Origin: Chiloscyllium plagiosum
Taxonomy: Eukaryota
Direction of reading: 5' to 3'
NCBI RefSeq assembly: GCF_004010195.1
Contig: NC_057718.1
Coordinates: 71,638,856 to 71,658,855, forward strand
Length of the DNA stretch: 20,000 nucleotides
A program made the translations under genes and the position numbers. Position 1 is the stretch's first letter; each line of letters begins with the position of its first letter. The notes beneath the pieces are model-generated. The model saw only the letters and a list, made by a program, of their open reading frames with translations. It ran no database searches and had not been told where the DNA came from. Below, one piece after another: positions 55 to 20,000 of this stretch.

Positions 55-1682
55 GTCTCAATTATGCATCAGCGATCACATTTTCTTGACTTGCCACATA
101 CATAACTTTCAAATTCAATGGCTGTAAATAAACATCTGAACAGTGTGACATTTTTGTCCTTAAATCTCTCCACAAACTTCAATGGGTTATGATTTGGAGG
201 TGCCAGTGTTGGACTGGGGTGTACAAAGTTAAAAATCACACAACACCAGGTTATAGTCCAACAGGTTTATTTGGAAGTGCTAGTGTTTCCAAATAAACCT
301 GTTGGACTATAATCTGGTGTTGTGTGATTTTTCTCAATGGGTTATGATCGGTGTATACAAATGTATCAGATGCGTTGCTGGTAATATAAACAAAGAAATG
401 TTGTAGTGCCAACATCAAGCTTAAGTCTCTTTCTCAACTGTTGAATATTTCTGCTGATAAAAGTTCAACTTCCTGAAGAAATACCCAATAGAAATACCAA
501 ATCTGTCTTCTCGTCATCTTCTTGCAGGAGCACAGCACTGATACCCATATCATTTGCATCGATAACCACCTTGAAAAGCTTTGTGCAATCAAGTCTGGCT
601 AATACTGGGGCAGTGGTTAACACAATTTTCAGGCTGTCAATGCCTCTGACAGTCCGCTGTCCACTGAAACTTCTTAGCTTTCTTTAGCAATTCAGTGAGT
701 GGAGCAGCCACACTGCTAAAATTTGGTAGAAGCTTTCGGTAAAATCCACTCAATTCCAGGAACCGTAGTACTACCCTTTTTGTTGATGGTATGGGAAATT
801 CCCTAATCACCATGGGACCATTTATCCATGTCTAATAGCATGGCACAGGAAGGTGACTTGTGCTTTGGCAAATTCACTTTTAGCTAAGTAACCACCAAGC
901 ATGCCTTACAAAGTTGTTTGAACAAGTCGAATAAGAGTTGTAAATGTTCCTTCCATGAGTAACTAAAAACCATCAGGTCATCAAAGTACACCACACAGTT
1001 AGATAATCCAGCAATTACCTTGTTCGTTAGTCTCTGAAATGTACTTTCATACCAAATGGCATGACTTTAAACTGATACAGTCCACTTGGCGTTACAAAAA
1101 CCGAAATTGCCCTTGCTCTTTCTGACAGAGGTACCTGCCTCTGAGCAAACCCAACTTAAAAATTTAAGTTGCAGTCTTCCAAGTGTGGAATTGGATGTGC
1201 ATCAGTCTTTATAATTACATTGACTTTGCGACAATCCACACATAACCATTGGGTACCATCTGGCTTTGGCACCATTACTATGGGTGAGCTCCAGTCACTG
1301 TAACTCATTTTGATTATGCCACCTTGGAGCATTCATTCTGCCTCCTTCTGAACCTGTGCCAATGTACGAGGATTATGTTGCTTAATCGGAACAGCATCTC
1401 CTATATCTACATCATGTACAATTAGGTTAGTATTTCCCAGTTTATTTCCATGTATCTCCCCATGCGATAGTAATAACTTTTTAAGGTCATTTTGAATTTT
1501 CTCAGGAAGGTAATTCAATAATTTAATCCAATTTTTGACAACTTCCTTATTGTCCAATTTAATTTGATGAATGTCCAATTCAGAATCCTCTGAATCTTAG
1601 TCTTCCTTCTGTGTTGTAATCATTAACACCATCTCTTCTGGCTTTCCTTCCCTGTCAAAATACCTTTTGAGCATGACATACA
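55..1682 (-). mobile_element. Decayed Gypsy-superfamily (Gmr1-like) LTR retrotransposon pol: integrase C-terminal tail, RT and RNase H
   Basis: Minus-strand translation with frameshifts and stops gives MLKRYFDREG (~1645-1675), HDVDIGDAVPIKQ, SDWSSPIVMVPKPDG..LCVD.RKVN, CVVYFDD (YxDD at ~977-988), RNase H IDANDMGISAVLLQ (~520-563), YTDHNPLKF (split by the 194-333 insert) and NVIADA near 65-85. Confidence 0.9.
194..333. mobile_element. 140 bp fold-back (hairpin) non-autonomous element, PLE-terminus related, with 15 bp target-site duplication
   Basis: Inverted arms 231-276 and 287-332 (one mismatch). TCAATGGGTTATGAT flanks it at 179-193 and 334-348. Removing the insert and one copy restores the RNase H motif TDHNPLKF. 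Same family as 2410-2639, 14535-14727 and 15713-15814. Confidence 0.9.
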
Positions 1683-2069
1683 TGAGAAAGTCTAGAGCCT
1701 TAAAACTTGTCTTTAAACATTTAGACTAAAATGTAATGCTGAATTATAGAACATATTTACTGCACGAGAAAATAGACAGGCAGGAAGGCTCAGAAAAAGG
1801 GGGAACTTAAAGATAGGGATACCTGGGCTCACCAAGTGATAACAGGATGGTGTAAGACAATTGAAAACATTTGTCTCAGCATCGGTGAATCTGTGAACAA
1901 GACACCAAGTGATAACGTGAAATTAATGACAGTGTTTGATTCTGACCCTGAATGAAAATCGGTACTATCAAAAGCTTTGTAATTAATGGTCAGATGCTGC
2001 CAATTATAATGGATCCTCATTACCCCCTTGCAAGCGGGGCAGACACAGAGAAAACAAAAATCTTTGCTG

Positions 2070-2409
2070 ATTGAGTGAATTCTTAGAAGAGTGTAAAGGA
2101 AGTAGGAGTATACTTAAGAGGGAAATCAGGAAGGCAAAAAGGGGACATGAGGTAGCTTTGGCAAATAGAATTAAGGAGAATTCAAAGGGTTTTTACAAAT
2201 ATATTAAGGACAAACAGGTAACTAGGGAGAGAATTGGGCCCCTCAAAGATCAGCAAGGCAGCCTTTGTGTGGAGCCACAGAAAATGGGGGAGATACTAAA
2301 TGAATATTTTGCATCAGTATTTACTGTGGAAAAGGATATGAAAGATATAGACTGTAGGGAAATAGATGGTGACATCTCGCAAAATGTCCAGATTACAGAG
2401 GAGGAAGTG
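2070..2409 (+). mobile_element. CR1-clade (HER1-like) LINE ORF2 internal fragment
   Basis: Encodes LKREIRKAKRGHE..IKENSKGFYKYIK..LNEYFASVFT, closely similar to 10540-10877. Confidence 0.9.
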
Positions 2410-2639
2410 AAACTATCATGGTATTCGAACAGATGAAAGACTCAACAGACAATCAAAGTATTTTTCAGTTACATCACACTGTAAACTTTTGCTATAAATT
2501 GTGTCCTCCACAACCACCTGATGAAGGAGTGGTGCTCCGAAAGCTAGTGTGCTTCCAATTAAACCTGTTGGACTATAACCTAGTGTTGTGTGGTTTTTAA
2601 CTTTGCCCACCCCAGTCTAACACCGGCATCTCCAAATCA
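2410..2639 (+). mobile_element. PLE-terminus-related short element carrying a hammerhead motif
   Basis: The 3' part matches the family sequence at 194-333 and 14640-14727 (TTCCAA.TAAACCTGTTGGACTATAACC...CATCTCCAAATCA), preceded by CTGATGA...GAAA. Confidence 0.8.
2515..2549 (+). ncRNA. Minimal type I hammerhead ribozyme motif, intact core
   Basis: CAC-CUGAUGA-A-GGAGU(GGU)GCUCC-GAAA-GC-UA|GUG. Stem I is CAC/GUG, stem II is GGAG/CUCC, stem III is the loopless palindrome AGCU. Predicted cleavage after A2546. Confidence 0.75.
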
Positions 2640-3199
2640 ATTGTATCAGACATGCGAGCTGTGCATGGTTACTTTATGACCTCTCCAATTAGCTCAGACT
2701 GGACCTCTTTATGATAGGAGTTTATCTCGCTAGCAAGCTGGGTATGTTTTTCCCACCCGATGGATAACTCGAGGCCTGTAGGAGTGATTAGTCAAGCGCA
2801 CACAGATCTGTCAAATAACTTTTCTTCCTTATGAATTATTGTCCTTCACTGTTATCTGTCTAATTAAGAAAATGCAGTGTGTTTTTCAAACTTTTGTATA
2901 AAGGAAGCCACTTTGTATCAGTACAGCGGAGTAGCCTGCTGGGGCACTTGAAGAGCTGGTACCCTACTCTCCTAGGTCATTAGAACCAAGTTAGTTTAGC
3001 TTATAGGTATCCATGTTATGTTGTAACAGTGATGCTATTAGTGAATAAAGGGGATGACTAAAATTAAACTAAATGTCTGAAAAAGGTTTTTATTCTAGAT
3101 ATCCAAAGAGTACAATATCTGGGACAAACCAAGAGAGAGGCTTTACAGGTCTGAGTCCACAAGGGATTCACTGAGCCGGCTCAAATCTGTACTTTAACA

Positions 3200-3985
3200 C
3201 ACACTGTGAGATTTCCTTCTGTCTGGTCTATCACATAGTTCACCTCACACAATTTCCTTTCAATTTGATAAGGTTCCCTAAATCTTGCTTATAAAGTTTG
3301 ACCTATTACTGGAAAGAACATTAATACCCTATCCCCGATAGCAAAATTGTGAATTTTTGATTTCTTATCTGCTTTCTGTTTCATTGTATGCTGTGATAAT
3401 TTTAAATGCTGTCTAGCCAACTCCCAGCTCTATTTAATCATTCTCTAAAATTTGACACATAGTCAAATGTATGGTCTCTGAATTCTGACTTACTAACTAC
3501 TCCTCACTTCATGCCTAAAACTAATTCAAATGGACTGAATTTGATGGACTCATTTGGTGCATCTTTGATCGCAAAAAACATAACCCTTATCCCAATCATC
3601 TGGATAGTCCAGACATGGTCTTTAGTGTTTAATGCCATCTTTATAGTGCTCTCTGGGATTCTGGATGGTACGCAGTAGATTTGAATTGTTTTACGCCTAG
3701 TCTGTCCATAACTTCCTTGAACAGTTTGGATGTGAAATTTGACCCTTGATCTGACTGTATCTCTATTGGTAGTCTTTATCTAGCAAAAAAAGACTAATTC
3801 CTCTCTAATTCGTTTAGCTGTGATATTGTGTAATGGATGGCCTCTGGAAATCTCATCAATACATCCATTATTACTAACAAATACTGATTACCACTTTTTG
3901 TTTGAGGTAGGAATCCTATGCAATCAATTAAGACTCTTGTAAAATGCTGGAATACGTATTAAACGTGCAGGCGTTATTGCCTGTG
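3200..3985 (-). mobile_element. Decayed integrase (rve core plus GPY/F region) of the same LTR retrotransposon
   Basis: Minus-strand motifs LIDCIG, PEAI, QSDQGSNFTS, AYHPESQRAL*RW (the catalytic E position reads as a stop), PYQI and PDRRKSHSVC. Confidence 0.88.
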
Positions 3986-3989
3986 GTAG

Positions 3990-4881
3990 CCTGTGCCTAC
4001 TGGAGTAGCTGGTTGCCTGGAATTGACAGAAAACAGATTTGAATTAGGCCATTCAGTTTAAACTATTCCCTGAAAAAAATACTAATTTTCAATAAAGTTT
4101 GACAATCTTAAAAGCCAATGACACAATCCAATGCCCTGGGGTGTAAGACCGGGGGAAATTGAACAGTTGGGAGGAGAACTGCCAAGCCACAGCTGGTAAA
4201 AGTCTGCCTGAAAAATAACTATCTTAAAAGTACCTTTTTTGATCAGTAACCTGAGCAGCAGAAATCCCTAAGACATAGGAAGATCCAAATAGAAGAACCA
4301 AAAGCTACCTGGTTTTGAGATAAGAAGTGTTGTTTTGTAATTCTTAATTGGGAGGTTTTTTTAAATTGGATTATTTACAGTGTGGAAACAGGCCCTTCGG
4401 CCAACAAGTCCACACTGACCCTCTGATACCCAGATCCATTCCCCCTGACTATTGCATCTGACACTACAGGCAATTTAGCATGGCCAATTCACCTGACCTG
4501 CACATCTTTGGACTTGGGAAGAAACCGGAGCACCCGGAGGAAACCCACGTGGAGGCAGGGAGAATGTACAAACTCCACACAGTCACCCGGGGTGGGAATT
4601 GAACCTGGGTCCTTGGTGCTGTGAGGCAGCAGTGCTAATCACTGAGCCACCGTGCCACCCCATTGGACTTATATTATAAAAGGGAAGATAAAAGATAGGT
4701 TAGAGTAAGTACTTGTACATAATTGTTAATTAATTATTTTCTGTTATACTTGAAGAATTAAAGTTGTTAATTTTTACTTTAAATAGTTCTTGGCCACTCG
4801 AATGTTTACAGATTACTGCATGGGATAAATCTTTTCTGTGTTGCTGGTTTTATGCAGGAGAGTTTACCCTGTGTCGTAACA
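3990..4881 (+). mobile_element. Possible LTR remnant, interrupted by a SINE
   Basis: AT-rich non-coding segment adjoining the integrase and ending in the LTR-like terminus GTGTCGTAACA at 4881. The left boundary and TSD were not identified. Confidence 0.3.
4369..4661 (-). mobile_element. HE1-like tRNA-derived V-SINE
   Basis: The reverse complement has a tRNA-like head (GGTGGCTCAGTG...GGTTCAATTCC), the V-domain (GGGTTTCCTCCGGGTGCTCCGGTTT) and a LINE-like 3' end (GGCCGAAGGGCCTGTTTCCACACTGT). ATTGGA occurs on both flanks. Confidence 0.9.
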
Positions 4882-5125
4882 CTAGACTAAAACATTAACT
4901 CTGCTTTTTCTGTCCACTGATGCTGCCAGATCGGTTGAGTTTCTCAAACAATTTCTGTTTTAACTTTCCAGCATTTGCAGTTCTTTGTCTTGTTTATGCT
5001 TGTGATAAATGGAATGTACAAAATCAAAATACACTGATGCTGGAAATCTGAAACACCTGTTTCTCTTTCCATGGATTCTGCCAAACCTGCTGAGTCCCTC
5101 CAGCATTCTCTGCGTTTGCAAACAA
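4882..5125 (+). repeat. Two short degenerate PLE 3'-terminal fragments
   Basis: GATGCTGCCAGA...GAGTTTCTC and CTGCCAAACCTGCTGAGT..CTCCAGCATT resemble the sequence downstream of the hammerhead at 14385-14517 (reverse) and 15530-15635. Confidence 0.55.
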
Positions 5126-5619
5126 TATAATATTATATGTTTTGAGCTGTAATGTAACCTTGGGGAGAATTCTTGGACACTTTCTTCGTATAGTTCCATG
5201 TGACTTTTTACATTCAGCTTCATAAACAGTTTCGGTTAACATTAACTATAACACTCTGATACAATGCTCTAAATCTCAATTGTACAATGGTCTTTGGAAT
5301 ATTTTTGATTAGCAGAGCTCAGATATCCTACATCCGAAGTTGCCTGTAACTTTTGTTCGTGGATGGTGAGTTGGGGGTGATGATGGCTCAACAATGTAGT
5401 GTTCGCAACACACCTCAACTGCTAACTTTAAAGTGGTCTGGACAGAAGCTGTCCAGTTGTTTCTGATAGCATAAACATCAAGAATCAAAGAACCCGGATT
5501 TAATGTGCCTGGAGAAAAAAAACCTATTCTACGCCGTTTCTGGTTAGGATTTGGGAGAATGTTGAAGAAAGATTTCCTTGGCCTTCAAAACAATGAATAG
5601 TTATGCCAAGAGAGAAAAA

Positions 5620-5795
5620 GGTAGCACTTCCGTATAACAGCTTTTACTATAAGCTATGTGGCTCGCTCTTGCACAGTCGCCACGTCACAGCTGCGCAATA
5701 TGCTTTTGAGCAATCTTAGATCTTGTCTCCGCCCACTGTATCGCTCGTATTTACAGTGGCTCCTCCCTGAATACCCGCACCCCATTGCTCGCATC
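5620..5795 (+). promoter_or_regulatory. Proximal promoter / 5' UTR of the ACAT2-like gene
   Basis: Local CpG enrichment in unique sequence. ETS-like CACTTCCG at 5625-5632, CCACGTCA (TGACGTGG on the minus strand) at 5680-5687, C/EBP-like TGCGCAAT at 5692-5699 and GC box CTCCGCCCAC at 5727-5736, all directly upstream of the ATG. Confidence 0.7.
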
Positions 5796-5847
5796 ATGAG
5801 CCAAGAGGAAGATGTGGTCATCATAGGTGCTGCAAGAACACCGATCG
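5796..5847 (+). CDS. ACAT2: First coding exon of cytosolic acetyl-CoA acetyltransferase (thiolase); exon 2 not found in the window
   Basis: ATG at 5796 (A at -3) encodes MSQEEDVVIIGAARTPI-G, the thiolase N-terminal motif (V-I-x-A-x-R-T-P-I-G) with no targeting peptide. It is followed by a phase-1 donor G|GTAAGG at 5847/5848, which matches my recollection of the vertebrate ACAT2 intron 1 position. Confidence 0.82.
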
Positions 5848-6017
5848 GTAAGGACATTCGGTTTGGTGTAGGAATGGAGCGAACAAGTCGAGTCGGTAGC
5901 CATGTTGTAAAATTGTGAAACGACAGACGGGACTCTTTTTTGCTGTCATTTCGAATTGCCTAGAAAGCCGAAATCCGTGGCCTCTGTTGGGCCAACCGCA
6001 GCTCAGGAGACGGCTGG

Positions 6018-6078
6018 TAACCAATTGCACGTTCCCTATTAATCAAACTTGTTTCTCAGCTCAGCACCTGATTGGCTG
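6018..6078. promoter_or_regulatory. CCAAT (NF-Y) boxes at the start of intron 1
   Basis: AACCAAT at 6019-6025 and CTGATTGGCTG at 6068-6078 (reverse CAGCCAATCAG, a full NF-Y consensus). Confidence 0.45.
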
Positions 6079-6588
6079 TAGGGCCATTGTCTTTGTGTTT
6101 TCCTTGGAATTAATTCAGAGAGATAACAGCAACGAAACCTTTTAAACTGGACCCAAATATTCCAGTTTTTTCTAACACAAATCAATGTAGGTCTTTAATG
6201 TTAAAAGAGCGGCCCTATGTTCCTCTGGAACTGTGGCGACTTTACCTTATCTTCATTTACGAAAAGTATTTGGATAAATCCAGCATATTTGTATACCAAT
6301 ATATTGAAAGCTCTCTGTTGTATTTTCCAGGAATATATCTGTTGATCATATGAGTTCAGTGTGATCACAGCAGAATTTTACAGTGTTCTACTATGCTCAG
6401 TGTGTGTCATGAGGTGGTGCTTCCCTACTCCAGGCCTGGGTAGAGTATTCTGTCTAGCTACCTCCATATGGTTGTGCTTCTCTTAGCAGATTCAAATAAG
6501 AGGCCAGAAAGCAAGATGCCTTTAAATAGCCAATTTGGGGCCTTAACTGGGGCAAGGACAGATAGGATTGTCCTGGATCTTGTGTGTC

Positions 6589-7714
6589 AAGAGTGTGGTG
6601 CTGGAAAAGCACAGCAGGTCAGGCAACATCTGAGGAGCAGGAGAATCAACTTTTCAGGCATAAGCCCTTCATCAAGAATGAAGCATGTGGGTCGGGGCTG
6701 AGAGATAAATGGGATGGGGGGAGTGGGGGGCTGGGTTGGGAGGAGGTAGCTGGGAAAGTGATTGGTGGATAAAGGTGAGGGAGAAAAGGTGGTAGGTCAG
6801 AGTGGGCAGCGATGGACCGGTCTGGAGGGTGATGCTGAGTTTGGAGGCTTGGGACAGGGATAATGTGGGAGGATGGGAAATGAGGAAGCTATTGAAATCC
6901 ACATTTATCCTGTGTGGTTACAAGTCCCCAAGGTGGAATATGAGGCATTCCACCTCCAGGTTTGACAGTGGAGGAGGCCCAGGACCTGCATGTCCTTGAC
7001 GGAGTGGGAGGGGGAGGAAGAAATGTTCAGCCGTGGGGTTGGTGGGGATGGGTGTCCCAGAGATGTTCTCTGAAACGATCCACAAGAAGCTATCCTGTCT
7101 CCCCGAATATAGAGGAGACCACATCGGGCCCAAAGGACGCCGAAGATGACATAGGTAGAGGTACAGGTGAATTTCTGACAGATGACATGTGGGTGGCACA
7201 GTGGTTAGCACTGCTGCCTCAGCGCCGGAGACCCGGGTTCAATTCCCGACTCAGGCGACTGAATGTGTGGAGTTTGCACGTTCTCCCTGTGTCTGCGTGG
7301 GTTTCCTCCGGGTGCTCCGGTTTCCTCCCACAATCCAAAGATGTGCAGGTCAGGTGAATTGGCCATGCTAAATTGCCCGTAGTGTTAGGTAAGGGGTAAA
7401 TGTAGGGGTATGGGTGGGTTGCGCTTCGGCGGGTCGGTGTGGACTTGTTGGGCCGAAGGGCCTGTTTCCACACTGTAATGTAATCTAATCTAAAAAAAAT
7501 CTAATGACTCTATGACTTTATGTGGAAGGGGTCCCTTGAGGCCTTGGTTGGAGGAGATGGGAGTGGTGTGGTTGCAGGATTTGCATTTACTGCCATGGCA
7601 GGGAAAGGCGCCAGGAGTAGGGTGTGGACAAGGGAGTCGCAGAGGGAATGGTCTTTTCGGAACACTGATGGGGTGGGAAGGGATATTTTATCTCTGGTGG
7701 TGAGGTCTGTTTGG
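6589..7714 (-). mobile_element. Penelope-like element, inverted arm (GIY-YIG region plus terminus with decayed hammerhead at 6644-6679)
   Basis: Diverged reverse-complement copy of ~12020-12810, interrupted by a SINE at 7191-7503. Confidence 0.85.
7191..7503 (+). mobile_element. HE1-like tRNA-derived V-SINE, near full length
   Basis: Head GGGTGGCACAGTGGTTAGC, B box GGTTCAATTCC at 7236-7246, V-domain, LINE-like 3' end and (AATCT)n tail. Confidence 0.92.
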
Positions 7715-8981
7715 AAGTCATAGAGTCATTGAGAAATACAGCATGGAAATAAACCCTTCGGTCCTACTCGTCCATGCCGACCAGATATCCCAACCCAATC
7801 TAGTCCCACCTGCTAGCACCCGGCCCATATCCCTCCAAGCCCTTCCTATTCATGTATCCATCCAAATGCCTTTTAAATGTTGCAATTGTACCAGCCTCCA
7901 CCACTTCCTCTGGCAGCTCATTCCATACACTTACCACTCTCTGTGTGAAAACGTTGTCCCGTAGGTCTCTTTTGTATCTTTCCCCTCTCACCCTAAACCT
8001 ATGCCCTCAAGTTCTGGACTTCCCAACCCCAGGGAAAAGGCTTTGACTATTTACCCTATCCATACCCCTCATAATTTTGTAAACCTCCATGAGGTCACCC
8101 CTCAGCCTCCGACACTCCAGGGATAACAGCCCCAGTCTGTTCAGCCTCTCCCTATAGCTCAGATCCTCCAACTCTGGCAACATCCTTGTAAATCTTTTCT
8201 GAACCCTTTCAAGTTTCACAACATCTTTCCGATGGGAAGGAGACCAGAATTGCATGCAATATTCCAAGAGTGACCTAACCAATGTCCTGTACAGCCGCAA
8301 CATGACCTCCCAACTCCTGTACTCAATATTCTGACCAATAAAGAAAAGCATACCAAACGCCATCTTCACTATCCTATCTACCTGCACACTCCACTTTCAA
8401 GGAGCTATGAACCTGCACTCCAAGGTCTCTTTGTTCAGCAACATTCCCTAGGACCTTAACATTAAGTGTATTTGCTAAGATTTGCTTTCCCAAAATGCAG
8501 CACCTTGCATTTATCTAAATTAAACTCCATCTGTCACTTCTCAGCTCATTGGCCCAACTGGTCAAGATCCTGTTGATATCTGTGGTAACCCTCTTCGCTG
8601 TCCACTACACATCCAAATTTGGTGTCATCTGCAAACTTATTGACTATACCTCTTATGCTCGCATCCAAATCATTTATGTAAATGACAAAATGTAGAGGAC
8701 CCAGCCCCGATTCTTGTGGCACTCCACTGGTTACAGGCCTCCAGTCTGAAAAACAACCCACCACCACCCCCTGTCTCCTACCTTTGGGCCAGTTCTGTAT
8801 CCAAATGGCTAGTTCTCCCTGTATTCCATGAGATCTAACCTTGCTAATTAGTCTCCCATGGGGAACCTTGTCGAAAGCCTTACTGAAGTCCATATAGATC
8901 ACATCTACTGCTCTGTCCTCATCAATCTTCTTTGTTACTTCCTCAAAAAACTCAATCAAGTTTGTGAGACATGATTTCCCA
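7715..8981 (-). mobile_element. CR1-clade (HER1-like) LINE, 3' half: RT C-terminal part, 3' UTR and tail
   Basis: GKSCLTNLIEFFE, YMDFSKAFDKVPH, SGVPQES.LGP, YINDLD, KFADDTK, LERVQKRFTRM, RRLRGDL, FTQRVV..WNELP, and an ATGACTCT-type tail at 7715-7730. Confidence 0.95.
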
Positions 8982-9626
8982 AGTTTCGGGCAAAAGCCCT
9001 TCATCAGGAATACAGGCAGAGAGCCTGAAGCGTGGAGAGGAGGGTGGGGGTGGGGAGAAAGTAGCATAGAGTACAATGACTTTATGTGGAAGGGGCCCCT
9101 GAGCTGCCCAACATTTCAACTCTCCCTCCCACTCTGCCGAGGACGTGGAGGTCCTGGGCCTCCTTCACCGCCGCTCCCTCACCACCAGATGCCTGGAGGA
9201 AGAACGCCTCATCTTCCGCCTCGGAACACTTCAACCCCAGGGCATCCATGTGGATTTCAACAGTTTCCTCATTTCCCCTTCCCCCACCTCACCCTAGTTC
9301 CAAACTTCCAGCTCAGCACTGTCCCCATGACTTGTCCTACCTACCTATCTTCTTTTCCACCTATCCACTCCAACCTCCCCCCTGCCCCCGACCTATCACC
9401 TTCATCCCCTCCCCCAGTCACCTATTGTACTCTATGCTACTTTCTCCCCACCCCCACCCTCTAGCTTATCTCTCCACGCCTTCAGGCTCTCTGCCTTTAT
9501 TCCTGATTCGGCTTTTGCCCGAAACGTCGATTTTACTGCTCCTTGGATGCTGCCTGAACTGCTGTGCTCTTCCAGCACCACTAGTCCAGAATCTGGTTTC
9601 CAGCATCTGCAATCATTGTTTTTACC
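8982..9626 (+). mobile_element. Truncated PLE terminus (9105-9626, +) preceded by a short inverted copy of itself (8983-9077, -)
   Basis: 8983-9077 is a close reverse complement of ~9424-9525. Hammerhead motifs at 8983-9011 (-, truncated after GAAAC) and 9499-9532 (+, damaged). The end of the GIY-YIG ORF (EERLIFRLGTLQP) lies near 9195-9240. Confidence 0.85.
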
Positions 9627-11204
9627 CTGCATTTATTTCAGCCTAACGGGGAAGGCAGATGAACTCACGGCATGGTTAGGAACATGGGAAAAGGATATCA
9701 TAGCAATTACAGAAACATGACTCAAGGATGGACAGGACTGGCAGCTTAATGTTCCAGGATACATATGCTACAGGAAGGAAAGAAAGGGAGGCAAGAGAGG
9801 AGGGGGAGTAGCGTTTTTAATAAGGGATAGCATTACAGCTGTGCTGAGGGAGGATATTCCCGGAAATACATCCAGGGAAGTTATTTGGGTGGAACTGAGA
9901 AAGAAGAAAGGAATGATAACCTTATTGGGATTGTATTATAGACCTCCCAATAGTCAGAGGGAAATTGAGAGACAAACTTGTAAGGAGATCTCAGCTATCT
10001 GTAAGAGTACTTAAGGTCGGGGATTTTAACTTTCCAAACATAGACTGGGACTGCCATAGTGTTAAGGGTTTAGATGGAGAGGATTTGTTACGTGTGTACA
10101 AGACAATTTTCTGATTCAGTATGTGGATGTACCTACTGGAGAAGGTGCAAACATTGACCTACTCTTGGGAAATAAGGCCGGGCAGGTGACTGAGGTGTCA
10201 GTAGGGGAGCACTTTGGGGTCAATGACCATCATTCTACTAGATTTAAAATAATGATGGAAAAGGATAGACCAGATCTAAAAGTTGAAGTTCTAAATTAGA
10301 GAAAGGCCAATTCTGATAGTCTTAGGTAAGAACTTTCAAAAGCTGATTGGGGCAGATGTTCGCAGGTAAAGGGACGGCTGGAAAATGGGAAGCCTTCAGA
10401 AATGAGATAATGAAAATCCAGTGAAAGTATATTCCTGTCAGGGTGAAAGGAAAGGTATAGGGAATGCTGGATGACTAAAGAAATTGAGGGTTTGGTTAAG
10501 AAAAAGAAGGAAGCATTTGTCAGGTATAGTCAGAATAGATCGAGTGAATCCTTAGAAGAGTATGAAGGAAGTAGGAGTATACTTAAGAGGGAAATCAGGA
10601 GGGCAAAACGGGTACATGAGTTAGCTTTGGTAAATAGAATTAAGGAGAATCCAAAGAATTTTTACAAATACATTAAGGACAAAAGGGTAACCAGGGAGAG
10701 AATAGGGCCCCTCAAAGATCAGCAAGGAGGCCTTTGTGTGGAGCTGCAGAAAATGGGGGAGATTCTAAATGAGTATTTTGCATCAATATTTACTGTGGAA
10801 AAGGATATGGAAGATATACACCGTAGGGAAATAGTTGGTGACATCTTGCAAAATGTCCAGATTACAGAGGAGGAAGTGCTGGATGTCTTGAAACGGGTAA
10901 AGGTGGATAAATCCCCAAGACCTGATCAGGTGTACCCGAGAACTCTGTGGGAAGCTGGAGAAGTGATTGCTGGGCTTTTTGCTGAAATATTTGTATCATC
11001 GATAGTCACAGGTGAGGTGCTGGAAGACTGGAGGTTGGCTAACATGGTGCCACTGTTTAAGAATGGTGGTAAGGACAAGCCAGGGAACTATAGACCAGTG
11101 AACCTGACCTCGGTGGTGGGCAAGTTGTTGGAGGGAATCCTGAGGGACAGGATGTACATGTATTTGGAAAGGCAAGGTCTGATTAGGGATAGTCATCATG
11201 GCTT
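9627..11204 (+). mobile_element. CR1-clade (HER1-like) LINE, 5' half of ORF2: AP endonuclease and RT N-terminal part
   Basis: Decayed APE motifs (CIYF, IAITET, GGGVA, YRPPN, GDFNFP, DH), then ORF 10471+ with KSP.PD.VYPR.L, WRLAN.VPLFK.G, PGNYRPVNLTSVVGKLLE, ending at SHHG. Confidence 0.95.
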
Positions 11205-11665
11205 GGTTGGGATCCAAGGGATCCTTCCATATCCATCACAAATTCACCTGCACCTCCACACACACCATTTACTGCATCCGCTGCACCCGATGTGGCCTCC
11301 TCTACATTGGGGAGACAGGCCACCTACTTGCGGAACATTTCAGAGAACATCTCTGGGACACCCGCACCAACCAACCCAACCACCTCGTGGCTGAAAACTT
11401 TAACTCCCCCTCCCACTCCGCCAAGGACATGTATCTCTGCCTCCACCCCCTCTCCGGCCTATCACCCTCACCTTAACCTCCTTCCACCTATCGCATTCCC
11501 AGCGCCCCTCCCCCCACGTCCCTCCTCCCTACCTTTTATCTTAGCCTGCTTGGCGCACCCTCCTCATTCCTGAAAAAGGGCTTATGCCCGAAACGTCGAT
11601 TCTCCTGCTCCTTGGATGCTGCCTGACCTGCTGCGCTTTTCCAGCAACACATTTTTCAGCTCTAA
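11205..11665 (+). mobile_element. PLE fragment: GIY-YIG endonuclease piece plus terminus with hammerhead motif (11566-11601)
   Basis: ORF 11198-11476 contains FTCTSTHTIYCIRCTRCGLLYIGETG..LAEHFREH. Hammerhead reads CTGAAAA-AGGGC-TTAT-GCCC-GAAACGTC (G8 to A). Confidence 0.9.
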
Positions 11666-12845
11666 CCTCCCATCACCGTCTCTGGCAACCGACTAACCAC
11701 AGACATATACTACAATCCCACCGACTCCCACAGCTACCTAGACTACACCTCCTCCCTCCCTACCTCCTGTCAAAATGCCATCCCTTATTCCCAATTCCTC
11801 CGCCTCTACCAGCCCTGTTCCCAGGATGACCAATTCTACCTTAGAGAGTCTCAGATGGCCTCCTTTTTCCATGATTACAACTTCCTCCACTTTACGCACC
11901 ATTGCCCTTGAACCCCACCCCTCCCAACACAACAAGGACAGAACCCCACCCTCCCCCGGTCCTCACTTTCTACCCCATACAACCTCTGCATACAATGCGT
12001 CATCCTCTGCCACTTCCACCACCTCCAAACGGACCCCACCATCAGAGATATATTTCCGTCCCAACCCCTATCAGCGTTCCAAAAAAGACCATTCTCTCCG
12101 TGCCCACACCCCCACTCCTGGCACCTTTCCCTGCCACTGCAGGAAGTGCAAAGCCTGCACCCACATCACTCCCCTCACCTCCATCCAAGGCCCCAAGGGA
12201 TCTTCCACATCCATCAGAAATTCACCTGTACCTCTACCAATGTCATCTAGTGCATCCTTTGCACCCGGTGTTGGTCTCCTCTACGTTGAGGATACAGGAT
12301 GCCTTCTCGTGAATTGTTTCAGAGAATGTCTCTGGTGCACCCGTAATTACCAACCCCACCGCCCCATGGCTGAACACTTCAAACCCCTCCCATTCCATCA
12401 AGGACATGCAAGTCCTGGGCCTTCTCCACCAACAAACCGTTAACCACCCGATGCCTGGAGGAGGAATGCCTCATATCCTGCCTTGGGACCCTGCAACCAC
12501 ACAGAATAAGTGTAGATTTCAACAGCTTCCTCATTTCCCCTCTTCCCCCCCCCCCCCATTATCCCAGTCCCAAACCTCTAACTCAGCACCGCCCTCCGCA
12601 CCCGTCCATCACTGCCCCCTCTGACGTATCACTTCCTCCCTCACCTTCATCCACCTATCACTTTCCCAGCTACCTCCCCCCAACGCACCCCCTTCCATTT
12701 ATCTCTCAGCCCCAACCCACAAGCCTCTTTCCTGATGAAGGGCTTATGCCCAAAACATCGATTCTCCTGCTCCTCGGATGCTGTGCTTTTCTAGCACCAC
12801 ACTCTTGACTCTGATCTCCAGCTTCTGCAGTCCTCACGTCTTCCC
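11666..12845 (+). mobile_element. Penelope-like element body (RT C-terminus, Cys-rich linker, GIY-YIG) and terminus with hammerhead motif (12728-12763)
   Basis: Frameshifted PTDSHSYLDYTSS, PGTFPCHCRKCKAC, IQGPKG and LYVEDTG..FRE. Hammerhead reads CTGATGA-AGGGC-TTAT-GCCC-AAAACATC (CpG-decayed). Confidence 0.9.
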
Positions 12846-14384
12846 TCCTGGACCTTGTGTGTCCCATGTAAATTGCTGGACAAATGGAGATAGGGATAGG
12901 GCTGATAGAAGGCTGTTTGAGAATTTTATAGGCTCATCCAGCCTACAAACTCTCCTTCAAGGAACAGTAAAAATTTCCCCTTGGAATTTGGGTACTGTTT
13001 GTGACCACAGACCAAGCTTCTGCAGGCACTACTTTATTAATAATACAGAGTTGCCAGCCAATCTGATTGGATTGCATCTGTCTGAGGTAGGGGTTCCATT
13101 TGGGTGAGGGGCAAAGTTGTTGTCTCTAGCCAATTAATACTCAGTGCCATTTGAAAAGTTTTGCCCATTGTTCCCGACACAAATGCTGGAGATATTTTGA
13201 GTGTATTTAACAAATTTCACCATGTGCTGCAGATTAATGCATTGTCTCTCAGAATCCAACTATCGTGCAGTTGTGAATGCATTTAGATACTACACTACTA
13301 TGAATATGTACAATACCAATATGATTTACAAACTATAAAATCTTACTTTTTAAAGAAAACCACCTGAATTTAACTTCTGTTGGAGAGAGATATCAAAGAG
13401 GAGTCTTGGCTTCTGTGTCTAGCAGCACCAGTTGATCTTTTTCAGAGCTCTTTACCAATGGAACATAGGTCCTTGGATACAGTTTTCTCATGACTGGTTC
13501 TCTCAGCCGAGTACAACACTTTTTACTTTCCGCGTTACAATGATTACATGCAACATTTTTGTCATTCTTAAACACCCCCCCCAAATCTACACATCCAATC
13601 CTGTGAACACACAATCAATGATGGACATCTTTGTGGACAGCCCTAGGTCCTCCCATGACCTCATGATGTTCACCTTTATCACTGGGCCTTGAGATCTTAC
13701 AATGCATCTCATTCAGTCACGTTCCAGCACTGACAGTTATACTCTTTCCCAGATACTTGCTTGCTGCATCAAGTTATTTTCAATAACTTGGATACTTGCT
13801 TATCACTAATGACTTTCAAATTCTGTTAGACAATTCATATTTTGTACTAATATTATAGGAGGTACTAAATGATGCTAATTTCTACCAATTGCTATCAAAT
13901 TTGTAATATCAGTTCCAATGTAAAGTTAGTTATGTGTCAGGATATACAGTTACATCTAATATTATAATCCTTTGACAGCTGACAAATTGGGGAGCAGCTT
14001 CTCTGTCTTGTACTTGGGAGATCAAACAAACACAGTCTCTCTATGTTGCAGCTTTAAGTTGGTTCAAAACAGAGGTTTGATTTTTGGATGGGGCCCATTG
14101 TCTTTACTTAAAATACCTTTCACTCTAGTTTTTCCCACCAAACAAGATAGTGCACATTCAAATTCCAGTGATAAGGATGAAGTTCAATTATTTTTGCAGC
14201 TTTCTGCTTGCTGAGCTGAAGAGAACAGATGCTTAGGAGCAGAGTTCCAAAGACAAAGGAGTTGTTAATAGTGGTGAAAAGGAAAAGGAGATGTAAAATG
14301 GATGTAAATTAAGGTGTGAAAGGGAGAAAATAAGTACTGTCAACTGCTCGTAGGAATGTAAAGTAAACAAGATGCAAACAAGAT

Positions 14385-14517
14385 GAAGCAAAGAATTGTG
14401 GATGCTGAAGATCTGAACCTGAAACAGAAATTACTTGGGAAATTCAGCAGGTCTGGCAGTATCTGTGGAGGGAAAGCAGAATTTACCTTTTGAGCTCAGT
14501 GACTGTTCTTTAGAACT
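14385..14517 (-). repeat. Degenerate PLE 3'-terminal fragment
   Basis: The reverse complement resembles 15500-15635 and 4882-4995 (CTCCACAGATACTGCCAGACCTGCTGAATTT). Confidence 0.6.
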
Positions 14518-14534
14518 CAATTTCAGAACATTTG

Positions 14535-14727
14535 GTTAAAAATCACACAACACCAGCTTATAGTCCAACAGGTTTATTTGGAAGTACAGTACTAGCTTTC
14601 AGAGCACTAAGCTGATGAAGGAGCAGCGCTTTGAAAGCTGGTACTTCCAAATAAACGTGTTGGACTATAACCTGGTGTTGTGATTTTTAACTTTGTCCAC
14701 CCCAGTCCAATCCAGCATCTCTACATC
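14535..14727 (+). mobile_element. Fold-back element of the 194-333 family, with a decayed hammerhead in the loop
   Basis: Left arm 14535-14606 is inverted relative to ~14627-14691. CTGATGA at 14612-14618 and GAAAGCT at 14633-14639. Flanked by CAGAACATTTG (14524-14534) and CAGTACATTTG (14727-14737). Confidence 0.85.
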
Positions 14728-15319
14728 AGTACATTTGAGAAGTTTTGTGAATCTGACTAGTCCTCAATTTGAAATCAGGTGATCATGGCAGTCATTTTAC
14801 ATCAATACTTTAAAAAAAATCACTTTAGTCCTTGAAAGTCAGAGATATTAAAAGTAAGATGATCAAAGATGAATATTGGTAGCCCATGTTTATCATTGTT
14901 GCATTAATCTGCTGTAGTGGTCAATAATCACTCTTCACTTGGAATGGTCTCCCATAAAGATATGTATGGAATTTCTTTAATGCGTAAATGAACCAAATGT
15001 TCTCCTGTGTTGGTATTTCTGATTGGATTTCTAATTTAAGGTTCTAATTCAGCTATCGATTTAATTGTGCTTGGCGACACCACAGAGCATCTGAGCTATT
15101 TCCTTTGAATGCACAATTGCGTATTCACAGAGGCAGCCTTGAAAGAGGAGAGCATTGGAGATGTACCAAGGGAGGAAGGAGCAACTGGGGTAGGACAAGG
15201 AAAGAGATGGGGGTGTGAAGGGAGGAGATCGGACTGAGACAGTGATTGCATCAGGGTGGGGGGGGAGAATTGGCTCACCATTCAGTTGGGATGGACAGAG
15301 TAGGGGGGAGAAAACTTCC

Positions 15320-15635
15320 CCACTGTCCCATCATGTCCTGTTTTCCCCTCTGCCCGTTGTCCTCTTCCCACACTAACAGCCCCACCTTTTCTCCTCTTCA
15401 CTCCCCCACCACCACCCCAATTTGTTTTCCTGACTTCCCACCCATCCAGCCCTCCCATTCTGCTCCCCACCTTCAGCCCCATCCATGTTCCTTTGGCCTG
15501 ATATCTGACGAAGGGTCACCAGACTTGAAACATGCACTTTTGTTTGTTTCCCACAGATGCTCCCAGACCTTCTGAGCTTCAGGAATTTCTGTTTTTAATT
15601 TAAATCTCAAGCATCTGCAGTTCTTTGTTTTATTC
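15320..15635 (+). mobile_element. Old PLE terminus with hammerhead-like motif (15505-15535)
   Basis: A C-rich tract, then CTGACGA-AGGGTC-ACCA-GACTT-GAAAC, then the CCCACAGATGCT..CAGACC terminal motif. The purine-rich tract at 15160-15315 may be an inverted piece. Confidence 0.6.
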
Positions 15636-15712
15636 CAGTTTCAATATTGCGCCTGTGTCCTGTACATGTGCAATTCTGACTTTGCACATGACACAATAAC
15701 ATACGGTTTTTT

Positions 15713-15814
15713 GTGATGTGGTGTTGGATTGGATCTTGGATTGGGGTGGACAAAGTTAAAAATCACACTGCACCAGGTTATCGTCCAACAGATTTACCTG
15801 GAAGTACTAGCTTT
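15713..15814 (-). mobile_element. Single-arm copy of the hammerhead-bearing short element
   Basis: GGGGTGGACAAAGTTAAAATCACAC..CACCAGGTTAT.GTCCAACAG...GGAAGTACTAGCTTT. Similarity stops inside the hammerhead core (AAAGCTAG on the minus strand). Confidence 0.8.
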
Positions 15815-18833: not shown

Positions 18834-19181
18834 GCTGTGTGTGGCGCAGGTTTGGCCCATTCCCTGAGCCTGTGCCACTGCAGTCACTCAAGTCATCTTC
18901 TACTTCATCTAGAGATCAAAGATGGACAGTGTGTGCAAAGTTCTGGATAAGGTGAGGGGATGTGGAAGTACCCAACACTAGTTGAAACTTTATTGCTGGA
19001 ACAGCACGCTGTGTGTGGCGCAGGTTTGGCCCATTCCCTGAGCCTGTGCCACTGCAGTCACTCAAGTCATCTTCTACTTCATCTAGAGATCAAAGATGGA
19101 CAGTGTGTGCAAAGTTCTGGATAAGGTGAGGGGATGTGGAAGTACCCAACACTAGTTGAAACTTTATTGCTGGAACAGCAC
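18834..19181. repeat. Perfect 174 bp tandem duplication
   Basis: 18834-19007 and 19008-19181 are identical by eye. Confidence 0.95.
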
Positions 19182-20000
19182 AGCAGGTCAGGCAGCATCC
19201 AGGGAACAGGAGATTCGACGTTTCGGGCACATGCCCTTCTTCAGGAATGAGCAGAGAGTGTTCAGCAGGAGAAGATAAAAGGTAGGGAGGAGGGACTTGG
19301 AGGAGGGGCGTTGGAAATGTGATAGGTGGAAAGAGGTCAAGGTGAGGGTGATAGGTCGGAGTAGGATGGAGGCGGAGATGTCAAGAAGAAGACTGCAGGT
19401 CAGGAAGGGGTGCCGGGCTGGAGGGATCCGGCTGAGACAAGGTGGGGGGAGGGGGGATGAAGAAACTGGTGAAGTCCAAGTTCATCCCCGGCGGTTGGAG
19501 GGTTCCCAGTCGGAAGATAAGACGCTCCTCCTCCGACCGTCGCGATGTTGTGGTTTGGCGGTGGATGAGTCCAATGACCTGCATAAACTGGTCTCCCAGG
19601 AGGACCAGTTCAAAATACGTACAACACAGATGGCCTCCTTCTTCAAGGACCGCAATTTCCCCCCCGACGTGGTCGACGGTGCCCTCCACCGCATCTCCTC
19701 CACTTCCCGCCCCTCCGCCCTTGAGCCCCGCCCCTCCAACCGCCACCAGGACAGAACCCCACTGGCCCTCACCTACCACCCCACCAATCTCCATGTACAG
19801 CGCATCATCCGCCGTCACTTCCGCCACCTCCAAACAGACCCAGCACCAAGGATATATTTCCCTACCCTCCCCTATCAGCTTTCCGTAGAGACCACTCCCT
19901 CCGCGACTCCCTTGTCAGATCCACACCCCCCACCGACCCAACCACCACTCCCGGCACCTTCCCTTGCAACCGCAGGAGGTGCAACACTTGCGCCCACAAC
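19155..20000 (+). mobile_element. Relatively young Penelope-like element: inverted terminus (19155-19584, -) joined to the body (19592-20000, +), running off the window
   Basis: The minus part encodes RRSEEERLIFRLGTLQPPGMN and carries an intact hammerhead. The plus part encodes MASFFKDRNFP..RTPLALTYHP..IIRRHFRHLQTDP, has a frameshift near 19840, then AFRRDHSLRDSLVRS..PGTFPCNRRRCNTC. CpGs are well preserved. Confidence 0.9.
19213..19248 (-). ncRNA. Minimal type I hammerhead ribozyme motif, intact core
   Basis: Minus strand AUUC-CUGAAGA-A-GGGC(AUGU)GCCC-GAAA-C-GUC|GAAU. Stem I is AUUC/GAAU, stem II is GGGC/GCCC, stem III is the loopless palindrome ACGU. GUC cleavage triplet, cut between plus positions 19217 and 19216. 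Confidence 0.85.

Follow-up and report, generated by a model that had tools for sequence, protein, structure and literature searches.

Penelope-like elements (PLEs) are known to leave insertion units with a tail of 30-40 bp and an adjacent inverted pLTR that is 5'-truncated and tailless (PMC3846280; PMC8557442). Target site duplications (TSDs) of 8-10 bp have been described for these elements, as has a junction into a LINE that is formed by microhomology and lacks a TSD. In the PAc element of Anolis carolinensis the tail lies between two sites at which reverse transcription starts, and in vitro work with PAc found its hammerhead to be dispensable (PMC11167929). Among the 56 examples in Fig. 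S3 of Cervera and De la Peña (2014; PMC4209133), G-C-U variants are present in five (turtle, two rotifers and two schistosome families), and a shrimp PLE has a CUA triplet. The Neptune clade is marked by a CX2-5CxxC linker, which is also found in Nematis, together with a pair of cysteines within the GIY-YIG domain, and the only vertebrate PLEs reported belong to Neptune and Poseidon. Here we describe four copies of a short repeat in a 20,000-nt stretch of shark DNA, the whole of which we refer to as the window. These copies very probably arose as separate, dead-on-arrival insertions that carry the pLTR and tail of a Neptune-type PLE, one that is coding and endonuclease-positive.

The four copies are homologous (blastn; identity to copy 2 from 80/98 to 64/70, E 1e-15 to 1e-31) and the bodies of all four finish at the equivalent of position 2639, which bears out the proposal of the first-pass annotation that they are one family with a shared 3' terminus. 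Copy 2 (2404..2639, plus strand) is the longest, is itself 5'-truncated and has two small deletions relative to most family members, near 2463 and 2504. Its longest frame has no Pfam match, in agreement with the claim that the copies are non-coding. Copy 1 consists of a minus-strand body (190..277; the 3' part of the pLTR plus the tail, 80/88 identical to copy 2), whose 5' end is a few nt from the predicted hammerhead cleavage site, and a tailless inverted arm on the plus strand (279..332; 50/54 identity) that stops at an inner terminus equivalent to 2598. In copy 3, a tailless inverted arm on the minus strand (14535..14607; 64/70 identity) spans the equivalent of 2532-2601, between loop II and the inner terminus, and the plus-strand body (14612..14728) has the tail and opens at the upstream margin of a hammerhead core that is degenerate. 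Copy 4 (15714..15814, minus strand; 80/98 identity) has its 5' end within the GAAA, is without an arm and has an internally rearranged tail. Copies 1 and 3 form long hairpins on folding, and only these two of the four copies have an inverted arm in head-to-head orientation, so that hairpin 5' ends, proposed as a family feature, do not hold as one. The copies are solitary, spaced by 1-12 kb, with no tandem unit in the window.

Copy 2 contains a minimal type I hammerhead of putative activity (2515..2549, plus strand) whose anatomy agrees with the consensus given in Fig. S3 of Cervera 2014. It comprises a core (2518-2524), an extra A (2525), stem II (2526-2538), the GAA (2539-2541) and a palindromic helix III (2542-2545), with a predicted cut after 2546; helix I has 3 bp and helix III is loop-less. 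The extra nucleotide after A9, the G10.1-C11.1 pair, the palindromic 15.2-16.2, the short helix I and the NUH triplet are all shared with the minimal hammerheads of metazoan PLEs, and the AGCU variant of helix III has already been published (PMC4209133). The 56 hammerheads of that figure differ in that they include no shark entry, and the exact pairing of a loop-less AGCU with A17 is absent among them. As judged from its sequence, the hammerhead is of the minimal PLE type and not of the canonical retrozyme type. Motif anatomy also confirms an earlier contrast, namely that this family has an AGCU helix III and a CUA triplet, whereas the window's other PLE family has ACGU and GUC; the longest blastn match between the two families is only 9 nt, in keeping with their distinctness. 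The hammerhead is intact only in copy 2, since in copy 3 stem II is broken and position 17 is a G, while copies 1 and 4 are without the CUGAUGA half. Thus, the description of all copies as hammerhead-bearing is too broad. Among the 40 variant entries listed of 64, none falls in 2518-2529 or 2540-2546, and loop II is variable. The hammerhead fold of copy 2 (-6.5 kcal/mol) is not the minimum-energy fold (-10.8 kcal/mol). No hammerhead family of Rfam matches the copies, the Rfam matches over them being hairpin miRNA models that are all sub-threshold. A pile-up of RNA ends was not seen in the mapped reads, and in PAc as well RNA ends do not pile up at the cleavage site.

Public contigs reveal a second, inner 3' terminus at 2598-2602, located 37 nt from the outer one at 2639. 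In run X1, 189 contigs leave the family at 2602 and 318 at 2639, with unrelated flanks beyond, and in runs X15 and X16 there are 63 and 70 contigs, respectively, that leave at 2639. The fixed 3' end that had been noted is therefore correct for the four bodies, but both inverted arms use the second terminus. Two termini 37 nt apart are a signature of the PLE tail (2603..2639, plus strand), which protrudes 37-45 nt past the inverted arm. The last base of the tail would be the A of the ORF start codon, as the consensus past 2639 opens, in both X1 and X15, with the letters that complete ATG. PAc likewise has two 3' termini that bound a tail and a pLTR hammerhead near the start of the ORF (Frangieh 2024, PMC11167929). 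It differs in belonging to the Poseidon clade and in having its ORF start in stem II, whereas the shark family has the Neptune/Nematis linker motif. In Pen2a_Av the ORF starts inside the pLTR, while the shark ORF apparently starts at the end of the tail.

A poly(A) cassette (2558..2601, plus strand) is located between the hammerhead and the tail, and consists of a hexamer, a poly(A) addition point and a downstream GU/U-rich stretch. The hexamer (2558-2563) is ATTAAA in the window and AATAAA in a substantial fraction of family members, and it is also present in a marine-metagenome contig described below (L002). In the oligo-dT run X21, 418 and 502 raw reads that carry untemplated A tails place poly(A) addition after 2575-2578. 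Polyadenylation of the sense RNA thus occurs within the pLTR, at a point upstream of both 3' termini, and for this reason priming of the short copies probably took place at internal sites in the RNA of the element itself. A paper retrieved by a literature search on Penelope pLTRs describes no poly(A) site in the pLTR, and the word "polyadenylation" does not occur in Schostak 2008. The resulting layout is notable in that a hammerhead, a poly(A) site, two putative priming sites and a start codon all fall within 125 nt.

The family is large, with 17,416 contigs recovered from approximately 61% of one run, which substantiates the view that this is a high-copy retroposed sequence. The short length that had been ascribed to it is not borne out, as reads and contigs continue upstream of 2463 and raw-read depth is sustained as far as copy 2 reaches on its 5' side. 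The six 5' ends in the window are all different (at or before 2404, 2518, 2532, 2540, 2543 and 2552), and they differ between arm and body inside one copy. Five of the six are within 2518-2552, a clustering that is not an obvious expectation under plain random truncation. Additionally, 2515 is the position at which 19 contigs in X16 depart from the family, and fold-back joints are seen repeatedly at 2515-2522. Contig depth summed over copy 2 was rejected as a guide to 5' ends because the deletions of this copy and a 2-nt insertion clip the alignments. An apparent excess of pieces that begin at 2549 is such a clipping artefact and does not represent real 5' ends.

The junctions with target DNA are variable. 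Copy 1 is flanked by an exact 15-bp TSD (179..193 and 334..348, both plus strand), with the last 4-5 nt of the left copy overlapping the element terminus, and copy 3 by a 12-bp TSD with one mismatch (14523..14534 and 14726..14737, both plus strand), with the first 3 nt of the right copy overlapping the terminus. In 3,000 random flank draws, from which pairs less than 200 nt apart were skipped, 15 exact matches arose in none and 12 with one mismatch in two. These two TSDs are solid. An 8-nt candidate TSD with one mismatch at copy 4 was set aside as chance-level, since the same arises in 284 of the 3,000 draws. Copy 2 interrupts a fragment (2069..2409, plus strand; 91% identical to 10538-10878) of what we take to be a CR1-like LINE. 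Their junction is a 6-nt microhomology at 2404-2409 without a TSD; as these letters fit both the CR1 fragment and the family, the 5' boundary of copy 2 carries an uncertainty of 6 nt. A TSD that flanks the CR1 fragment and copy 2 as a single insert was looked for and not found. When compared with canonical endonuclease-positive PLE units (PMC3846280; PMC8557442), the shark copies have the same head-to-head tailless arm, a tail at one end only (here 37 nt) that adjoins the ORF start, a variable TSD, a palindrome at a junction and an insertion into a LINE joined by microhomology. They differ in being only 100-240 bp in length and far more numerous. PAc also primes without target homology, whereas shark copies 1 and 3 have the 3-5 nt overlap between TSD and tail end. 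The insertion pattern is one already described for the PLE class, of which the shark family is a further member.

Several lines of evidence connect the repeat to coding sequence. In a C. punctatum gene model (P0160, XP_072410591.1), residues 82-133 correspond to the pLTR and tail translated in antisense (69%, E 3e-18), residues 144-375 are a PLE reverse transcriptase (RT; 65% to P0006), and a resemblance to the sense frame of the hammerhead returns at the C-terminus; P0160 is the only one of 382 proteins with the antisense match. In a whale-shark (Rhincodon) gene model (P0196), the 12 residues that precede the ORF methionine match the tail translation. With the site set beforehand, 38 of 100,000 shuffles give a match as good. 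The match counts only because the site is fixed, as in a free search over all proteins 318 of 500 shuffles reach it, which is not significant. Both are gene models in which splicing could have joined separate elements. The hammerhead pattern was found at two loci in metagenome contigs. Contig L002 has GIY-YIG coding sequence upstream of an AGCU/CUA hammerhead that is 33/35 identical to 2515-2549, and contig L001 carries this hammerhead together with a piece of RT in inverted orientation; both are rearranged and belong to a family different from that of the shark. There were no matches to the hammerhead pattern in viral contigs or to the exact 24-nt pattern in metagenome, prokaryote and viral contigs, no P0006-related locus was confirmed in viral or prokaryote contigs, and comparing the first 109 proteins with the copies by tblastn produced chance-level matches only. 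Shark-named proteins are 25 of the 120 P0006 relatives listed, with identity of 56-66%, and none is among the 105 long relatives; an intact full-length shark ORF was not recovered, nor was a DNA contig in which this pLTR runs into an ORF. Among the endonuclease-bearing relatives checked, in which the endonuclease is C-terminal, 9 of 11 have the CX2-5CxxC linker and 8 of 11 have two cysteines inside GIY-YIG. Neptune is preferred over Nematis because only Neptune and Poseidon are reported in vertebrates. By way of these gene models and related-family contigs, the repeat is indirectly identified as the probable pLTR and tail of a Neptune-type element with RT and GIY-YIG domains. The search for such an element that ends in this sequence, proposed in the first-pass annotation, has thus yielded gene models and related contigs but not an intact shark element. 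No Pfam match was obtained for a putative thiolase exon, and a literature search returned nothing relevant on shark Penelope hammerheads and no match to an 18-nt motif.

Three other readings have to be weighed. The copies could belong to a non-autonomous mini-element of 90-125 nt derived from the pLTR, transcribed independently from a start in or close to the hammerhead and moved in trans by the coding PLE, such that short copies beget short copies. Its very high copy number, the five of six 5' ends in the hammerhead core, and the X16 exits and fold-back joints at 2515-2522 would suit such an element; non-autonomous PLE derivatives are also known (Chlamys/MRC1) and pLTRs are sufficient in trans. 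However, no two 5' ends agree, even between arm and body of one copy, a short transcript terminated at the poly(A) site would be without the 3' ends found in the DNA, and the family extends upstream and is joined to coding sequence in P0160. We therefore regard this reading as rather unlikely.

Far less probable is a non-LTR retrozyme that spreads via self-cleaved circular RNA. Animal retrozymes are short, non-coding and PLE-related with a type I hammerhead, as are the shark copies (PMC7229834; Li et al. 2026, bioRxiv 10.64898/2026.07.22.740005); they derive from PLE pLTRs and are present in the only chondrichthyan sampled. They are, however, tandem, with a complete hammerhead per unit (canonical in PMC7229834), and have circular RNA, whereas the shark copies are solitary or head to head and mostly without a whole hammerhead. 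Neither two or more consecutive complete hammerheads in tandem nor a canonical type I hammerhead (helix I of about 6 bp, capped helix III) was found, head-to-tail joints are single contigs of depth 6-15 (15 of 27 joints listed), and a circle predicts permuted ends rather than two fixed 3' termini. The earlier view of a separate, retrozyme-like non-autonomous element is thus replaced by that of PLE pLTR plus tail. The hairpins of copies 1 and 3 could also suggest a MITE, or some other derivative of a DNA transposon that has terminal inverted repeats, a reading to which we give practically no credence. Terminal inverted repeats are not present in all copies and the TSD is not constant (15, 12 or none), the tail extends beyond the arm and the fold centres differ; variable TSDs and one-sided copies already refute this reading, as had been anticipated.

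The favored reading of truncated PLE insertions accounts for the termini, tail, inverted arms and RT/GIY-YIG links, which agree in upholding the proposed PLE relationship. The copies are in substance truncations of a PLE, an outcome that had been named as one that would undo the initial interpretation, although their 5' ends are not fully random-looking. A mechanism can be proposed from Frangieh 2024 (PMC11167929) and Arkhipova 2013 (PMC3846280). The target would be cut by the element's own RT-endonuclease, and reverse transcription would start inside the RNA, either at the pLTR end (2598-2602) or at the tail end and start codon (2639). Because ordinary poly(A) RNA terminates at 2575-2578 and does not reach either priming site, the template would be the 5' pLTR of the ORF-bearing RNA or a read-through RNA. 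Synthesis of cDNA would proceed toward the RNA 5' end and stop or run off in or near the hammerhead. Where both target ends are primed, two cDNAs would join head to head to give a hairpin with a protruding tail (copies 1 and 3), and where one end is primed the other would be joined via microhomology (copy 2 and probably copy 4). No separate master element would be required.

An extension of this mechanism, which we offer tentatively and consider possible rather than probable, is that the hammerhead sets the 5' limit, with start-codon priming on the autonomous RNA running to the transcription start or to a cut 5' end, and that a conserved poly(A) cassette withholds the priming sites from terminated RNA. 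Run-off at a transcription start just upstream of the core would give copy 3 and the ends at 2515-2522, run-off at a ribozyme-cut 5' end would give copy 1, which folds back a few nt from the CUA site, and the poly(A) cassette would be conserved between the shark and an unrelated marine family.

For annotation, these results mean that such hairpins are PLE ends and not MITEs, microRNAs or retrozymes. To our knowledge, no minimal hammerhead of a PLE that requires a dimer has been demonstrated to cleave in vivo. If the layout were confirmed genome-wide, it would allow a count-based test of whether the minimal hammerheads of PLEs cleave in vivo and shape the template. Should the tentative extension prove true, the shark genome would hold a very large fossil record of such in vivo cleavage, and the element would possess a built-in switch that yields stubs instead of full copies.

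Three loci in the window besides copy 2 itself (2404/2410-2639, +) match copy 2 as a blastn query, and no fourth significant locus was found. On copy-2 coordinates, copy 1 consists of a body covering 2552-2639 (190-277, -) and an inverted arm covering 2543-2598 (279-332, +), copy 3 of a body covering 2518-2639 (14612-14728, +) and an arm covering 2532-2601 (14535-14607, -), while copy 4 covers 2540-2639 (15714-15814, -). All four bodies reach one outer terminus, so the four-copy family with a common 3' terminus proposed in the first-pass annotation is real; the two arms end at a second terminus further in. The "hairpin" 5' ends were overstated, as they occur in two of the four copies but not in the other two. 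The two clear TSDs are upheld, that of copy 1 being 15 bp and exact (none of 3,000 draws of random flanks was as good) and that of copy 3 being 12 bp with one mismatch (2 of 3,000). For copy 4 the candidate TSD does not exceed chance (284 of 3,000 random draws gave one as good). Copy 2, for which none was found, breaks into a CR1-like fragment at 6 nt that match both sequences. The solid TSDs, those of copies 1 and 3, each include the final 3-5 nt of the tail (190-193; 14726-14728), hinting at short primer-template pairing, whereas priming without homology is reported for PAc, a Poseidon-clade Penelope-like element (PLE) of Anolis carolinensis (Frangieh 2024, PMC11167929).

Part of copy 2 is present in 20 of the 24 sequencing runs listed. 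Alignment of four runs to 2396-2660 at 85% likeness gave 17,416, 4,534 and 5,490 matching contigs and 2,390 raw reads. Exits into unrelated flanks occur after 2602 (189 contigs in run X1) and after 2639 (318, 63 and 70 contigs in X1, X15 and X16), with 24 of 745 loose ends and 15 of 27 joints listed. The 37-nt gap between these exits (2603-2639) is the PLE tail, a feature given as 30-40 bp long (Craig 2021, PMC8557442) and mapped to two RT start sites (Frangieh 2024, PMC11167929). Tailless inverted terminal repeats (pLTRs), 8-10 bp TSDs and a TSD-less microhomology junction into a LINE have likewise been described for PLEs (Arkhipova 2013, PMC3846280). Common sequence extends 5' of 2463 in 146 contigs and 212 reads. 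Raw reads cover 2405-2413 about as deeply as 2414-2422; copy 2, which also carries two small deletions, is therefore itself truncated. The shark family is possibly already in Repbase or Dfam; no description of it was found in the literature searched, where subscription papers were scarce.

The hammerhead pattern led to two loci on marine-metagenome contigs (L001 and L002), identical to 2515-2549 at 33 of 35 positions. In L002 the hammerhead lies ~750 nt downstream of a GIY-YIG-type frame in the same sense, whose domain is 39% identical to the GIY-YIG piece of the window and has no Pfam match; the L001 stretch has an inverted RT piece next to it (Pfam RVT_1, E 5e-5). L001 374-1050 and L002 738-1414 represent one PLE family from a marine animal host, with a ~800-nt 3' non-coding stretch and inverted segments, and its layout of hammerhead and poly(A) hexamer is nearly identical to that of the shark family. 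Searches starting from these contigs reached P0006, an 881-aa PLE ORF. Its 120 listed relatives include 25 named shark proteins, 56-66% identical to it; no intact shark ORF was found, the 105 long relatives including none with a shark name. One protein in 382 matches the four copies, namely P0160 (XP_072410591.1, Chiloscyllium punctatum). Its residues 82-133 are the shark pLTR and tail translated in antisense (69% to copy 2, E 3e-18); residues 144-375 form an RT (Pfam E 1e-6), and the C-terminus again resembles the sense hammerhead frame. In this gene model the layout is an inverted pLTR, a truncated ORF and a pLTR. In P0196, a whale-shark gene model, the ORF methionine is preceded by 12 residues that match the translated tail of copy 1, with a score reached at that fixed site by 38 of 100,000 shuffles and somewhere in the whole protein set by 318 of 500. 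In all four copies the last letters of the tail frame are an Ile codon and an A, P0196 and protein P0236 have Ile-Met, and the letters that follow 2639 in the X1 and X15 consensus complete an ATG. The cysteine motifs of the linker and the GIY-YIG domain indicate either Neptune or Nematis; one survey reports only Neptune and Poseidon from vertebrates (Li 2026, bioRxiv 10.64898/2026.07.22.740005).

To call the family hammerhead-bearing was too broad, as copy 2 alone has the whole motif; in copy 3 stem II is disrupted and position 17 is G, and copies 1 and 4 start past the CUGAUGA half. The copy 2 motif agrees with the minimal consensus in the literature (Cervera 2014, PMC4209133). It does differ from the ACGU/GUC hammerhead of a second PLE family, as first noted, but is no new class. 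Published motifs with a G-C-U helix III come from a turtle, two rotifers and two schistosome families, and a shrimp PLE has a CUA triplet (Cervera 2014, PMC4209133). Among the 40 of 64 variants listed, the core is constant except for one CpG (2538-2539) and loop II is variable. The motif has no Rfam match, copy 2 has a predicted fold of lower energy than the hammerhead, and RNA ends do not pile up in the runs examined, all of which count against the predicted ribozyme activity; in L002 stems I and II do form in the predicted fold. Activity of such motifs is described as low and dimer-dependent, most solo motifs probably being truncated PLEs (Cervera 2014, PMC4209133).

Untemplated A tails follow 2575 and 2578 (418 and 502 reads) in X21, the sole raw-read run, an oligo-dT single-cell set sampled at ~2% and possibly from another species than that of the window. 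They start 12-15 nt past a hexamer (2558-2563) on the hammerhead strand, and read depth is maintained across the predicted cleavage site. Both the hexamer and a GU/U-rich stretch are kept at the same place in L002. RNA terminated here, host-derived or not, lacks both 3' termini found in DNA, and the polyadenylated RNAs may be host transcripts ending in a copy. A poly(A) site inside a pLTR was likewise not found described in that literature.

In its repeats the window resembles shark DNA, with what we take to be tRNA-derived SINEs and CR1-like LINE pieces, and with several PLE fragments that have GIY-YIG-like coding sequence (weak Pfam GIY-YIG match at 11183-11473). The second PLE family is represented by six pLTR pieces (6594-6681, 8983-9011, 9510-9581, 11560-11655, 12724-12783 and 19159-19254), several joined to GIY-YIG coding fragments, and has no similarity to the family of copies 1-4; a 5'-truncated member (11204-11655) interrupts the ORF of a CR1-like element (9690-11203), much as copy 2 cuts into CR1-like sequence. 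A third, older short-repeat family occupies 15505-15628, 14386-14468 (-) and 4880-4988, the copy at 15505 starting with a degenerate hammerhead-like motif. Two head-to-tail 174-nt copies at 18834-19181, 100% identical and beside a PLE insertion, stem either from a very recent duplication or from an assembly artefact. A region of decayed LTR-retrotransposon-like coding pieces (400-1700 and 3460-4130, -), with an RNase H-like Pfam match at 465-680, contains or borders copies 1 and 2. A short frame at 5796-5847 (+), starting MSQEEDVVIIGAARTPIG and followed by a GT donor, has no Pfam match and resembles thiolase exon 1 (ACAT2-like); introns of this putative gene may contain copies 3 and 4.

The structure of the copies is observed, and the steps by which they would arise are inferred from the behaviour of PAc, in which both strands are cut and extended (Frangieh 2024, PMC11167929). 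Very probably the RT-endonuclease of a coding element primes inside its own RNA, at 2598-2602 or 2639, then synthesises cDNA in the direction of the RNA's 5' end. If both target ends prime, a head-to-head hairpin with a protruding tail would result; priming from one end with microhomology would yield copy 2. A mini-element propagating itself is an unlikely source of these copies. We consider a retrozyme, a class characterised by tandem units together with circular RNA (Li 2026, bioRxiv 10.64898/2026.07.22.740005), highly improbable, and a MITE hardly credible. Five of the six 5' ends fall within 2518-2552, one of the six lying at the upstream edge of the core, and 19 contigs in X16 exit at 2515. 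This distribution would be compatible with run-off at the 5' end of an RNA close to the ribozyme, although the six ends are not independent. That the genomic stubs record ribozyme-delimited templates is a tentative and rather doubtful extension. The family itself is real and high-copy, and known PLE biology explains it.
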